A stretch of 64,000 nt of DNA from a plasmid, in the sequence record NZ_CP118918.1. One strand, given 5' to 3'. A program made the position numbers. This document shows, one piece after another, positions 3,001 to 9,000 of the stretch. Each line of letters starts with the position of its first letter. The first letter of the stretch is position 1.

Positions 3001-6000
3001 ACAGCAGTAGTCGCGCTGATTGCTGGCGTGACACTGGGCGCTGTCTTCGGGGGCGGCGGTACAAGTGACTCCGGGACCGGCACCGAAGCCCCGGTAGAGA
3101 TTCAGCGGGATCCGGCCGGCGTGGCCGGCGGTGGTGCGCCATCGCCCGCTGAGGTACACGCTCAAGACGTCTCCCTGTGCACCAGCTACGCCATCATCAA
3201 CAGTGCGATGGTGACTCCTGATAAAACCGGCTCTGATCTTCTACCGACCGTAACCGCGCTCCAGGTAGCGCTGGCCGACAATCCCGATGCCAGCGCACCC
3301 GTGCGCGTAGCAGTCACCGATCTCGCTTCAATCTATCGAGCTCGCGTAGCTGCTCATGGGAACGTTCGCACGCGAGGCCTGGCGGAACCACCCCCGTACA
3401 ACATGGACGCAGAGAACGCGGCGGTCGAGCAGGTGTGGACCGTATGCGGATTGCGCGATTAGTAGGAAATAGGGGGTTCTAATGGCGGCGGTGATCGGTA
3501 ATGCAGGGGATGTACAGCGACCGTCAGGACGCGCGTCCTCACTAACTGTGCTGCCGTATTGGCCGTCCATCAGCGAGACTGATTTGCAGTCGCTTGCCGA
3601 TGACGAAAGGGCCATGGCGACATCGGTATCCGGGTATGCCGATACGGTGCAAAATGAGATGACTAAGGGTGCGAGCCTGCTAGTTGGTCAGGGAGGCGAA
3701 GCCCGTGTCGAGTTGATGCGCAAAATGGTCAATCACGCCGATGGAGGCGCCAGGCATTTCAAATCGACTGCGACGGCGGCGGATTCATTTCGTGCGATTG
3801 TCGTCGGGTTGAAGACTGACCTCAGTCGCGTCGCCGACGCGGCGGCCGAAGCATGGAATACCGCCCAATCCAGCGGCGGCACATCCGCTGCTGTGTCGGC
3901 CATGGCCCCGTTCAAAGCCGAAGCTGCCAGCCTCTACAGCACCGCACTCGAAGACATCGCCGCCACGCCAGCGGTTTTCCCCATCCCCGAAGCCCCGATC
4001 GGCGAAACACCTGATGCACCAAATAAGAACACCGCAGAACCTGCAAGCAACACCGAGGAGAAGCAAGACCTCGGAGATAAAGAGCCAGTACGCGATGCAT
4101 CAGATCAAGACGCTATATCGGGCGACAAAGGCGATGCAGCCACCAACCCCGACGATGCGGAACGCCTAGCAACCGAGACTGGCGATACACAAACAGACAT
4201 ACTGCGTCCCGCTGAACCCACGCCAGCGGCATCTCCGGTCGGGACAGAGATGGGAGTGCCCGCCACGGGTATGCCGGCGACTGCGTTGCCGGTGGGGGGC
4301 GGTTCAGCTGGCGGGGGTATGCCGTCGGCGGGTTCGGCGATGGGTGGTTTGCGTCCGCCGCAGATGCCCGCTGGGCTTAGCAATCCGTTGGGCAGCGGGG
4401 GGAAGTCGCTGTCGGATGCGTTTACGTCGCCTGCGTCGGCGGCGGATTCGTTGGGTAGTGGTGGGTCGTTGACGAGTGCGGCGTCGAGCTTTAATTCGGG
4501 GTTGGCGTCGGGTATTGGTTCCTCGGGTGCGGTGTCACCGCCTCCGTTGGAGAGGTTCATGGCCCAGCATCCGGGTGCGGCGCCTGCGGTGGCGGCTCCT
4601 GCACCGAGTCCGGGGCAACCGTCGGTGGCGGCTGCCGGTGGCGGTTCTGCGGGCCCTGCTGCGGGGCCGATGGTCGGCGGTGGGCCGATGATGGCGCATC
4701 CTCCCGCGGCTGGGGGTTCCGGTGGTGGGCCGTTGGCCCCGTTTGTTCCGCCTGGTGGTGGGGCGGCGGCAGGTCCGACGGCGGCGGGACCAACGGCTCC
4801 TGCGTCGGCGGCGGCCGCGCCGGCGACTGCTGCTCCTTCGGGTCAGCAGGGCAGTGCTGCTCCGGTGATGGCAGGCACGTCGGGTGCGGCGACGGCGGCG
4901 AGCATGCCTGAGCCTGAGGTGAGTGCGGACTTGTTGTTGGCGCGTCAGGTAATCGACGGGTTGGTTCGAGGTACGGATGCCGCGTGGAACACGATTGATG
5001 CGGGGTTTGTGAATTGGGCTGTGGCCGTGGTGCGTACACAGCTTGGATCGCAGCTCGTCATTGGTTCTAGTGCTGGTGGTGGGGTTTATGTGCCTGCTTC
5101 GGTGTTCGTTCCGACGACGGCGCGGTTGGCGCCTATTGATCCGGCGTTGCCGTGGAGTTGGGCGTCAGGCTTTTTGGGTTGGCGGCGGCCGGCGGATTTG
5201 TTGACTGCGCATGCGGATGCGTTGTCCGACAGGGTGTCTGGGGTTGTGCGCAGTGCGTTGGTGACCACTGCGGAGGGCCCGCGTCCGTCGGGGTGGTCGG
5301 ATTTCGAGACGGTGACGATGCGGTCGATTTTGCATTCGCCGGGGTCTGTGCCCGTGCTTGATGGTGCTCATCAGCATCGGTTGGCGACGATTGATCCGGC
5401 GCTGGCTCAGCAGATCGCGTCGGTGGGTACGGGGCCGGCATCGATATCAGTTGCTGCGGTGATCACTCGGAGTGTGGTTGAGTCGGCGGTGGCCACGGCC
5501 GGGGCGGTCGGTCCGGATGGTCCGGTGCGTGGTGCGGATGGTCCGATTCATGTTGCTGAGGCAGCCGACCTGTCGTTGTTGAATCAACTGAGCCAGGGCG
5601 TGGCCGTGGACTGGGATTCTTACGATGCCGAGGTCGCGCAGCGTCACGACGGCAATGCCACCAGTCCGCATATGAATGGGCCGCTGGATCTGGATGATTC
5701 GGCGGACTCGCTGCGTCAGCGTCTGCTGTACATGGCGTTCTATCGAACAGCGTTGATTGCGGAGCTCATCCGTTTCTGGCGGCAACCGGCCTCGCCGGCG
5801 TTGGCCGATATCGTGTACTGCGCCGTAGCGGCGGGCTTCAAGCCAATCGTTACCTCAACGTTGAACTCGATCTGACCGGGTTTCTTGGGCGTCGGTAAAC
5901 ACCTTCCGGCGGTATTTCGTCACGAACACCAGGTGGGCGTGCAGCAGCGACACGCTGTGCCGGACGCGGCGATAGGGCGTTGTCACAGGTCGCCTTTACA

Positions 6001-9000
6001 GTCGAAGGTATGCAGATGCGCTACCGGTACCGCATCGAACCGACACCGGCCCAGCAGGAGATGCTGGCGCGGGTGTTCGGCTGCTGCCGGGTGGTGTTTA
6101 ACGACGCGCTGCGGGTCCGCGACGAGGCGTACCGGGCCGGGATGAAGCTGTCCGACAGTGAGATCCAGCGTCGGGTCATCACCATCGCGAAGACCACCAC
6201 CGAGCGGGCCTGGCTGCGCGAGGTACCCAGTGTGGCGTTGGTGCAGTCGGTCAACGATTCCCGGCGGGCGTGGCGGAATTTCTTCGACTCGGCCACCGGG
6301 AAGCGTAAGGGCCGCAGGGTGGGCCGGCCGCGGTTCAAATCCCGCAAGGACCACCGGCAGTCGTTTCGGCTCACCCGCAACGGCTTCTCGATCCGCGACA
6401 ACGGCCGGCTCTTCGTCGCCAAGGTCGGACAGGTCGCGGTGAGGTGGTCGCGCGAGCTACCGTCGACCCCGTCGTCGGTCACGATCATTCGGGAACCGGA
6501 CGGGCACTTCTACGCCAGCTTCGTCGTCGACGTCTCGGCCACACCGCTGCCCGTGGTCGACCGGGAGGCTGGCGTGGATGTCGGGATCGCTCGGTTGGCC
6601 ACGGTGGCCACCACCGACAGCCATCGAATCGATGTCGAGAATCCGAAGCATTTAGGCCGCAAACTACGCAAGTTGCGGCGGTTGGAGCGGGAGAAGTCCC
6701 GCCGGCAGAAAGGATCAGCCAACAGGGCCAAGACGCGGCGCAAGATCGCGATCGCGCATAACGAGGTTGCCCGTGCTAGGCGGGACTACCACCACAAGCA
6801 GGCTTTGGCGTTGGTTCGCGAGAATCAAGTGATCCACGTCGAGGACCTCAATATCGCTGGGATGGTGCACAACCGCCGGCTCGCACGTGCCATCAGCGAT
6901 GCGGGGTGGGGCCAATTCGTGCGGATCATCGGCGAGAAAGCCGACCGCTACGGGCGCACCGTGCACACGGTGTCGCGGTGGTTGGCGTCGAGCAAAACCT
7001 GCTCTACACCTGGGTGTGGGCATCGGCTCGGCGAACTCCCACTACAGGTCCGGCAGTGGACGTGCCCCTCGTGCGAGGTGATTCACGATCGAGACCACAA
7101 CGCCGCCAAGGTCATTCTCGCTGCCGGGCGGGCAGAGAGACTAAACGCCTGTGGAGCCCGTGTAAGACCGCAACCCGTTGCGGCAGTGGGCGTTGAAACA
7201 GGAAGCACCCCAACAGCGGCGTAAGCCGGGAATCCCGGAATCCGGGGAGCACGTCAAAAGCTGCGGACCCAGGTTTTTTTCTCGATATTCTTGCTGCGGC
7301 GACCCGAGCACTTCGGGATTATTGAGTCCAAGGTAACCATGCTGGAAGTGCCCCCCAGAGAACTGACGCGGCCCCAGGCCCTGTCTTCCGGCAGGAACTC
7401 CTGGGGTCCACTTCCGATGGCACCGCGATGCATCGGCTTTACCAGCAATTTTAGGTAAGCCGCACGAGCCGTGCAAGCGCAGTGCTACATGTGGCAGCTC
7501 CACATGGGCCTTCCGGGGGCGCGAGATGCAAAGGTGCTGTTCAAGTAGGCGTATGGCTGGTGTCAGCTCTTGGTGTGGTGTTTGAATTTGCACAGGCGCA
7601 CGCTGTCACACAGCGTTGATTACTGATTGTTCACGTGATTAGTCAATGTGTGTAATATGTCTATCAGTGCGTGAGTGGCGTAGCGGCGTTGGCTGGAAGG
7701 GGACCGATGACCAGGCATCTGAGTCAGGATTCGCAGACCGATGAGCTGATGTCGCAGGTGGCGGCGACCGCGATGTCGTCTCGACGGTCGGTGGTCGTAC
7801 GTGTGAATGCGATGGGGTTTGTGCGCTATGTGACGTTGAGCAATGAAGCTCGCCAGTGGGATTCGGTGACTCTGAACAAGCGGTGCCGGGCGGTGGCGGC
7901 GGTGGCTCATGATCGATGGTTGGCCAACCACGGGGTTTCTGATGGGACGTTACCGACGCTGGAAGCGGTTGCCGCTGCCGAGCGTGCATTGAACTTCTAG
8001 TCGCGTAAGGAGCGATGCATTATGTCGTGGGACGTGTTCGGGTTGGCGATTAACCAGGTCGTGGGGGATGCGTTGAAGGCGTTCGCGGGGCCGGGTGCTG
8101 TTCCGTTGAGCACCGGGCCTGGGGGTGTTCCGTTTCCGTTGGAGCCTGCGCCGGCTCCTCCTGGTCCGGTTCCGGGTCCGCCTCCAGCGCCGGAGGGTCC
8201 GCCTACGACGACCACAACGACACCCGGTCCGCCCGGGGCCCCGACTCCACCGACGGGGCCGGCGACGCCGCCCCCGCCTCCTCCAGGTGTTCCTGAGGGT
8301 GGTGACGGTGGGCCCGCGGCTGAGGCTGCGAAGGAGAATGCTCGCAAGATCGGGATGATGCTGGAGGCTCTTCACGATTTGGACTCGGCCGGTATCAGTG
8401 CCGATGAGATCGCTGCGGCCGGGGAGGCCGGTCGTGTGGAGCTGGAGAAGATCAATTCCGATGTGCAGGCGAAGATTGCCGAGCTGAAAGCCAGCGGCGC
8501 TTTGTACACCCCGGAGGGGCAGCAGGCCCTGATGGACTACAGCAAGACGCGGTTGGAAGAAGCACGTGGGGTCATTGAGAAGGCCGCAGCTGAGGCTGAG
8601 GATAAGGCCAAGGACACCGACAAGAACACCGCCGCGTACGAGGGTGTCGGTGGTCAGGGGAACGGTAGTGCTGACGGCGGGGCCGGTGGTGGAGAGGCTG
8701 GTGGCAGCGGGGCCGAGGACAAGTCGGCTGGTGAGCCTGTGGCGGCTGCTGGGCAGCCCGGTCTGGGTATGGGTGGGATGCCCGGCATGGGTATGGGTGG
8801 CATTCCTGGGCTCGGTGGTGGCATTCCGGGCTTCGGAGGCGGGGGTTCTCCGTTCGGTGGTGGAGGCGGCGGGCTACCAGGTGCGGGTTTCGTTGATCCG
8901 TTGGCGTCGTCGTTGGCGGGGCTCGCTGATCCAGAGCGGGCAGGCCTGGGTTTCAACGACGAGCCGGACGATGAGCCGGCCGATAAGGATTCCGAGGGTC

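Follow-up and report, generated by a model that had tools for sequence, protein, structure and literature searches.

A TnpB gene in the esp region of a mycobacterial plasmid

We analysed a TnpB gene and its surroundings in a 64,000-nucleotide stretch of the plasmid record NZ_CP118918.1 (hereafter the window; positions refer to it unless another sequence is named). An earlier note, made from the sequence alone, had described this gene as a solo, IS1341-type TnpB inserted in an esp accessory region. The locus carries an insertion sequence (IS) remnant at 5877–7257, which lies directly behind an EspK_C-like gene (3482–5875) and has the following parts, from the transposon-adjacent motif (TAM) through the left end (LE) to the right end (RE).

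5873–5876, plus strand: TGAC, insertion target of the family and TAM, directly 5′ of the left end
5877–5891, plus strand: LE remnant CGGGTTTCTTGGGCG, corresponding to nt 1–15 of the family LE
5986 to 5892, minus strand: tnpA remnant VTTPYRRVRHSVSLLHAHLVFVTKYRRKVFTD, with its GTG start at 5986–5984 and about 32 codons, HUH motif included
5997–6002, plus strand: TACAGT, a −10-like hexamer that precedes the tnpB ATG by 7 nt
6010–7224, plus strand: tnpB, an apparently intact RNA-guided endonuclease gene of 404 aa, identified by Pfam, NCBIfam, alignment to ISDra2 and family comparison
7116–7257, plus strand: ωRNA scaffold and RE, delimited by an alignment of 75 relatives, RNAalifold and pair counts

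The tnpB gene was listed as a 414-aa open reading frame (ORF) with a TTG start (5980–7224, plus strand), and the likely start is the ATG at 6010, which gives 404 aa. This 404-aa protein scored above the cut-off with each of three Pfam models (HTH_OrfB_IS605, 65.8 bits; OrfB_IS605, 85.1; Cas12f1-like_TNB, 74.4) and with the NCBIfam model guided_TnpB (313.9 bits, cut-off 100). We also aligned 383 of its residues with ISDra2 TnpB (PDB 8bf8) at E 1e-70. The RuvC triad, D190, E278 and D362, corresponds in this alignment to D191, E278 and D361 of ISDra2, and the zinc cysteines C331, C336, C352 and C355 correspond to C331, C334, C351 and C354, the catalytic and zinc-binding roles being those described for ISDra2 TnpB (PMC10097598). 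The inactivating RuvC substitutions that the earlier note had named as a test of its proposal are thus absent, and the intact triad rules out a TldR, that is, a nuclease-dead TnpB-like repressor. The first cysteine pair is spaced CxxxxC and not CxxC; the exact motif occurs in 13 relatives and the same spacing in a few more. At positions that are at least 95% conserved in 67 relatives, the window TnpB has no deviation, as compared with a family median of three. Copies at the same locus are about 100% identical (the 404-aa form and 402-aa start variants), and the next-nearest TnpB is 92% identical.

In the relatives inspected, the hexamer TACAGT or TACGGT lies at a fixed distance of 7–8 nt before the tnpB start codon. 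Judged by sequence and position, TACAGT may serve a leaderless tnpB mRNA as its promoter, which would then lie within the tnpA 5′ stub. A promoter scan gave no match to a sigma-70 consensus. A divergent patch lies in the tnpA–tnpB intergenic and start region: over the 70 nt at 5952–6021 there are 17 mismatches and three small gaps relative to L008 and the 402-aa TnpB variants (L115, L119, L122 and L124), on plasmids that are otherwise identical. This patch suggests gene conversion from another family member and shifts the called TnpB start.

The left end and the loss of tnpA

Megablast against plasmids returned related elements of 84–90% identity, several of which carry a divergent gene annotated 'IS200/IS605 family transposase' directly upstream of tnpB. 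The full unit on pMA100 (L002) is 1773 bp long (2109–3881), and a divergent Y1 tnpA of 137 aa is present in L002, in L003 and in about 30 genome loci. Alignment with these mycobacterial relatives, as the earlier note had suggested, defined LE and RE and identified TGAC as the TAM. In the window, TGAC overlaps the TGA stop codon (5873–5875) with which the EspK_C-like gene ends. Among 30 full-length relatives, about 25 have TGAC immediately before the left end, as do many tnpA-less ones. No direct repeat flanks the element in the window sequence, and the insertion thus lies 3′ of a fixed short target without target-site duplication.

The LE consensus, taken from 30 full-length copies on genome contigs, reads CGG(A/G)TTCTTGGGCGCAAGCCTCGGACTTYAGTCCGGGG or, with its target, TGAC^CGG(A/G)TTCTTGGGCGCAAGCC (carets mark junctions) and runs on into a subterminal hairpin, CTCGGACTTYAGTCCGGGG. 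This hairpin is deleted in the window copy. The left junction there reads ...ATC TGAC^CGGGTTTCTTGGGCG^TCGGTAAACACC..., with the 15 nt of LE running straight into tnpA at about codon 33. We found the tnpA stub by tblastn with the pMA100 TnpA; it matches positions 1–28 of the NCBIfam model transpos_IS200 (E 1.6e-6; 28.3 bits, below the cut-off of 55). About 104 tnpA codons are gone, including the region of the catalytic tyrosine, and a Y1 HUH transposase is therefore not encoded. DNA homology to L002 starts at 5892 and that to L003 at 5888, and it ends at 7257. Relative to the 1773-bp unit, 378 bp (L002 2123–2500) are missing, which comprise the LE hairpin and tnpA codons ~34–137, and a GGCG microhomology lies at the deletion junction (5888–5891).

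We found neither an intact tnpA nor any further TnpA or TnpB homologue in the 64-kb window. The earlier note was right that TnpB stands here without a functional TnpA, and it missed the tnpA and LE remnants at 5877–5986. Those remnants, a stub of about 32 tnpA codons and 15 nt of LE, replace its IS1341-type classification by that of a deletion derivative of an IS605/IS608-organised element.

A conserved ωRNA scaffold that is damaged in the window copy

The 3′ end of tnpB and the RE contain the following elements, all on the plus strand.

7116–7140: stem A, a scaffold helix
7168–7183: stem B, a scaffold helix
7217–7228: stop-codon hairpin, reduced to 4 bp in the window
7230–7233: GAAT, 5′ of the guide-proximal stem
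7234–7246: guide-proximal stem CCCGG-AAT-CCGGG, shortened
7254–7257: terminal motif TCAA, the end of the RE
7258–7273: predicted 16-nt guide AAGCTGCGGACCCAGG, the DNA directly flanking the RE, positioned by the ISDra2 architecture
7274–7280: T7 run, in flanking DNA

The RE boundary lies at 7257, where similarity among 81 aligned copies, a few of them degenerate, ends after ...GGAGCACGTCAA, and homology in 75 relatives is lost past GTCAA; the terminal GGAGCACGTCAA is intact in the window. RNAalifold analysis of 75 copies, aligned over their last 240 nt, revealed compensatory changes at 12 of 25 pairs. When we counted three helices (A, B and guide-proximal), 94.7% of cells were paired and 12 of 19 pairs had changed on both sides (173 cells). 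The observed values were not reached in any of 500 shuffles, and slid controls paired at just 40–55%. The alignment also displays a family stop-codon hairpin, GCGGC-GTAA-GCCGC. A scan of 5000–9000 against Rfam gave no family match at E ≤ 1. The covariation in 75 relatives supports the proposal of the earlier note that an ωRNA module covers both the 3′ end of tnpB and the RE.

The window copy has lost part of this module. Where the relatives read GCGGCGTAAGCCGCCAGCGGGAATCCCCGGACTTCAGTCCGGGGAGCACGTCAA, the window reads GCGGCGTAAGCCGGGAATCCCGGAATCCGGGGAGCACGTCAA: 5 nt are lost after the stop-codon hairpin and 7 nt from the terminal hairpin, whose 8 bp and TTCA loop are thereby reduced to 5 bp and an AAT loop. 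No other copy of the 75 has this partial truncation; L054 lacks the hairpin entirely, and a relative of 92% identity has the full stem. Because the RE deletions are the same in independent assemblies, they are not an assembly error. The conserved RE structure is a property of the family, whereas the last 146 nt of the window copy fold no better than shuffled sequences (z-score −0.54, as compared with −2.7 and −2.8 for L002 and L003).

These deletions also account for the CCGGGAATCCCGG hairpin described in the earlier note. It is present at 7226–7238, directly after the stop codon (7222–7224), but it is not a conserved structure: it is an alternative pairing between the conserved GGGAAT segment and the leftover stem arm, and hence a scar of the two copy-specific deletions. 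The T7 run described with it is indeed the only one in the window. It lies at 7274–7280, not 7275–7281, which is outside the RE, 17 nt past its end and directly after the predicted guide, and it is not unexpected by chance (0.53 expected; at least one in 35 of 100 shuffles). A terminator scan found no terminator-like site at this run.

A subset of relatives (for example, L031) carries a 36-nt insertion in the tnpB 3′ coding region (alignment columns 134–169, window-equivalent ~7150). It contains two extra hairpins, CCCAC-GCAA-GTGGG and GGGACCAC-GAAA-GTGGTTCC, in which we observed compensatory changes. This insertion looks like an expansion at the RNA level that adds 12 codons to TnpB.

Recurrent deletion of tnpA in the family

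The closest relatives of the window element (88–92% identity) carry tnpA. Elsewhere in the family, tnpA deletions keep TGAC and a few nucleotides of LE (L044, L048, L052, L054, L063 and L078) or just a 5′ stub of the first ~24–38 codons (L040, L041 and L050). The deletion in L063, from LE into tnpA, is almost of the window's kind, whereas L052, although tnpA-less, keeps the LE hairpin that the window copy has lost. By sequence comparison, the loss of tnpA by deletion is a repeated and independent event in this mycobacterial family. On pMA100 (L002 506–3881), a 5′-truncated IS copy is joined head-to-tail to the full copy, and the junction between them, ...GTCAA^CGGATTC (RE^LE), is the sequence expected of the excised circle junction of an IS200/IS605 element.

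Plasmid context

A metagenome contig of 126 kb (L004) matches 11.2 kb of the window at 100% identity, and NCBI lists the exact TnpB as plasmid-borne in Mycobacteroides chelonae. Assembly GCA_000974925.2 contains the locus as well. Upstream of the element lie a PE/PPE-EspB-like gene, small ORFs and a 797-aa gene that has a weak precomputed EspK_C match and no Pfam match in our own scan. Downstream lie a 97-aa ORF (7707–8000), a DUF4226-like gene, paralogues with SLT and VldE-like domains, and EccB. These neighbours bear out the esp/ESX setting given in the earlier note. Its view that two paralogous sets of esp genes are split by the insertion is not supported, as the 97-aa ORF has no similarity to the upstream small ORFs. 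The SLT and VldE-like genes are adjacent (396 and 362 aa, respectively) and share a 5′ portion of ~680 nt with 92% identity (9498–10178 versus 10688–11365), a tandem duplication in which the C-terminal domains differ.

The IS lies downstream in all 23 contigs that we read with the exact EspK-like protein (a protein listed in 140 blocks). The 97-aa neighbour protein occurs in 604 blocks, both with and without the IS. The intergenic DNA that separates the EspK-like gene from the 97-aa ORF (5876–7341 and 7479–7597) is hypervariable in comparison with L001, L092, L113 and L120, and L001 carries an integrase and a toxin–antitoxin insertion there.

We looked for an exact empty site. The EspK-like gene ends in TGAC only in the djl-10 plasmid (L001), in contig L092 and in the window sub-lineage; L001 and L092 share the TGAC stop and differ in the intergenic DNA, and plasmids of the SMC type and the L120/L121 type have another stop-codon context. 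A metagenome scan with the right flank gave no match, and one with the left flank returned L092 as the sole homologue. A hairpin that follows the TGAC stop in L092 (10258–10295, CCCGCCATGAAATGGCGGGGAGC) resembles the RE hairpin of the family. We considered it as a solo RE relic and rejected it, as its score of 26.3 bits lies among those of shuffled controls (maximum 28.2) and the resemblance may be due to chance.

The guide matches the EspK-like gene of sister plasmids

The predicted guide has a second counterpart, 'site 2', in the EspK-like gene.

5041–5060, minus strand: site 2 in the EspK_C-like gene of the window, with the TAM TGAC (plus-strand GTCA, 5057–5060) and a 16-nt stretch

The EspK-like gene of the IS-free L001 (2343–2361) and L092 (9426–9444) contains on the minus strand an exact copy of guide nucleotides 1–15 (7258–7272), preceded there by TGAC. 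The site there reads ...CCAATGAC^AAGCTGCGGACCCAG^ATGCG, the match being TGAC+AAGCTGCGGACCCAG. Other IS-free lineages match at 14 of the 15 guide positions: pSMC-8_2 (L113, the same record as L116) and pSMC-4_1 (L114), in which the site lies at ~1689–1707, as well as L118 and L123 and, separately, L120 and L121. The match is limited by the RE boundary on one side and starts directly after TGAC on the other, and limits of this kind are characteristic of an IS junction. In a comparison of 76 family loci, the window guide was the only one with a genuine match of TAM plus 15 nt in another locus; the only other such matches were between the tandem-junction 'guide' of L002 and the left ends of other copies. 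We found no further guide match within the window at fewer than three mismatches.

The window's own site 2 is recoded, TGAC+GAGCTGCGATCCAAGC in place of the TGAC+AAGCTGCGGACCCAGA of the sister plasmids. It mismatches the guide at positions 1, 9, 10, 13 and 16; position 16 is mismatched in the sisters too, in which the match covers positions 1–15. Every IS-bearing plasmid keeps TGAC at site 2 and differs at 5038, 5041, 5044, 5047, 5048 and 5056, and every IS-free plasmid sampled has the ancestral site. Of these six changes in 19 nt (5038–5056), five are at wobble positions and one at a first codon position (H to Q, P to S). Five of the six are window-specific, as compared with a rate of 2.6% for window-specific substitutions in the 1.5 kb around the site. 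With site 2 specified in advance, a script put the probability of five or more changes in 16 nt at P = 4e-5, although the 16-nt target contains just four of the five window-specific changes. Estimates by hand were ~1e-4 for five changes in 19 nt and ~1e-2 for three changes within the 15 matched nt. When the whole gene was scanned for a substitution cluster, the result was not significant (P = 0.22, for four substitutions in 18 nt).

A probable immobile deletion derivative with an intact TnpB

The element is a decayed member of an already known family, fixed on a widespread mycobacterial ESX plasmid. We consider it highly probable that it is a deletion derivative of an IS200/IS605-family IS with IS605/IS608-like organisation, in which tnpA and tnpB were divergent, and that it is now immobile, with tnpB intact and the RNA scaffold damaged. 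The IS would have inserted by the family's usual route, 3′ of TGAC at the stop codon of the EspK_C-like gene on an ESX-type plasmid, and a 378-bp internal deletion between two GGCG microhomologies would then have removed the LE hairpin and tnpA codons ~34–137. The remaining 1381 bp cannot yield TnpA, and the tnpA 5′ stub that was kept probably still provides the sequence from which tnpB is expressed. Because the element has lost the LE hairpin that TnpA supplied in trans would need, it should be non-mobilisable even in trans, going by the IS608-type mechanism as summarised in 10.1101/2023.03.14.532601.

As established for the family, TnpB binds an ωRNA whose 3′ end is the RE flank (architecture in PMC10097598) and cuts matching DNA next to the TAM. 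The DNA so cut is the vacant site, and the IS is thereby kept or driven, including in multicopy plasmids (10.1101/2023.03.14.532601 and PMC11870625). For the window TnpB, the ωRNA would come from the tnpB 3′ end and the RE, and the target would be TGAC-adjacent DNA that matches the 16-nt RE flank, the vacant site in IS-free copies of the plasmid. Because the window element cannot excise, IS-free plasmid copies would be its only canonical targets. The two scaffold deletions shorten the guide-proximal stem and the stop-codon hairpin, and the nuclease activity of this copy is therefore probably reduced or lost.

Several observations weigh against this account. The intergenic DNA past the EspK-like gene varies among sister plasmids and no exact empty site was found, so that canonical insertion at the present site is deduced from the TGAC^LE junction alone. 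In sister plasmids, the RE flank has a match at another TGAC site, on the opposite strand and at a distance of 0.8 kb, and such a second-site match is not predicted by a simple single insertion. Moreover, a perfectly conserved TnpB protein sits oddly with a decaying element.

A native IS1341-type element, that is, a tnpB-only IS with both ends intact and mobilisable in trans, would fit the absence of a tnpA ORF and the many relatives that also lack tnpA. The tnpA stub and the absence of the LE hairpin refute this reading; just 15 nt of LE are left, the closest relatives bear tnpA, and we regard a native IS1341-type element as extremely improbable. An inert fossil is a more serious contender, if still a doubtful one: TnpB would be unexpressed or without an RNA partner, and its ORF would be intact just because decay is recent. 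The damage to tnpA, to the LE hairpin and to part of the RNA scaffold favours this explanation, as does the fact that no related active copy at 93–99% identity is known. However, the absence of deviations at family-conserved residues, the widespread and stable locus, and the retention of the upstream region with its conserved −10-like motif speak against it; several independent deletion derivatives keep the tnpA 5′ stub too.

The second-site match raises another possibility, which we think unlikely: that the guide is the fossil of an earlier insertion site in the EspK-like gene. The IS or its parent would first have lain at site 2, antisense to that gene, and would have moved with 15 nt of flank through use of an aberrant right boundary. 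The guide would then have found a match in the vacant site 2 of all plasmid copies, its own included, leaving survivors with a recoded site 2, a crippled scaffold or both, and it would still cut sister plasmids with the ancestral site, a form of plasmid competition. The 19-nt match that starts precisely at the RE boundary, its uniqueness among the 76 loci, the division between recoded IS-bearing and ancestral IS-free plasmids, and the density of largely wobble changes at site 2 are consistent with such a history, and use of alternative RE boundaries has been seen experimentally (10.1101/2023.03.14.532601). However, the IS-bearing plasmids are one lineage, and the association therefore amounts to a single evolutionary event; the substitution cluster does not stand out in the whole-gene scan; and a short gene-conversion patch, like that at 5952–6021 in an element variant, could yield the same pattern. 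In addition, the captured segment ends in CCAG and not in the TCAA motif, and the scaffold may be non-functional. We found no copy inserted within the EspK-like gene and no closer or active copy, just the same locus at about 100% identity and then a gap to 92%. An empty site reading TGAC^AAGCTGCGGACCCAGGTTTTTTT or TGAC^AAGCTGCGG... would mean that the flank is native and the insertion canonical, whereas TGAC^GTTTTTTTCTCG... would mean that the 15 nt were captured; a junction GTCAA^AAGCTGCGGACCCAGATGCG would indicate an IS inside the EspK-like gene.

The main outcome is a routine correction of annotation: the element is an IS605-family copy that has lost its transposase by deletion, is immobile and keeps an intact TnpB. 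As by-products, a mycobacterial IS family is defined by its target and TAM (TGAC), its RE end (TCAA) and a covariation-backed ωRNA scaffold absent from Rfam, and tnpA loss is seen to recur within it. If the match between guide and EspK-like gene is real biology, it would provide evidence from nature that IS200/IS605 elements can capture flanking DNA. It would also point to a conflict of the autoimmunity type, in which a TnpB guide is set against its own replicon, resolved by target escape through mostly synonymous recoding, with a nuclease aimed at competing plasmids as a possible side effect.

Comparison with known systems

The window family resembles IS608 of Helicobacter pylori and other IS605-type elements in having a Y1 HUH tnpA together with tnpB, subterminal hairpins at both ends, and insertion 3′ of a tetranucleotide without target duplication. 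The window RE ends in TCAA and has GAAT just 5′ of the RE hairpin, which are the RE cleavage motif and DNA guide of IS608. The family differs in its target, which is TGAC and not TTAC, and in its divergent tnpA and tnpB, whose starts lie ~20 nt apart; in the window copy, tnpA and the LE hairpin are deleted as well. Compared with the ISDra2 TnpB–ωRNA complex of Deinococcus radiodurans (PDB 8bf8, 8exa and 8h1j), the catalytic triad and the zinc cysteines are the same, the ωRNA would likewise overlap the tnpB 3′ end, and a guide-proximal tetraloop hairpin precedes the guide by ~20 nt (PMC10097598). By contrast, the TAM is TGAC and not TTGAT, the first cysteine pair is CxxxxC, and the guide-proximal stem of the window copy has shrunk from 8 to 5 bp.

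With IS1341-type elements and other tnpA-less derivatives, including PATEs, the window copy shares a tnpB without a working transposase, and tnpA deletions in its relatives keep TGAC and a few LE nucleotides. Unlike the window copy, which has lost the LE hairpin, mobilisable derivatives keep the hairpins at both ends (for example, L052). A parallel in setting is the TnpB gene drive of IS elements in multicopy plasmids (Mears et al. 2025, PMC11870625). There too, an IS605-family TnpB is plasmid-borne and its guide records the insertion site, and the window IS is likewise fixed in every plasmid copy sampled. The window case differs in being known from sequence alone, in its damaged scaffold and in a guide that matches a second site in sister plasmids.

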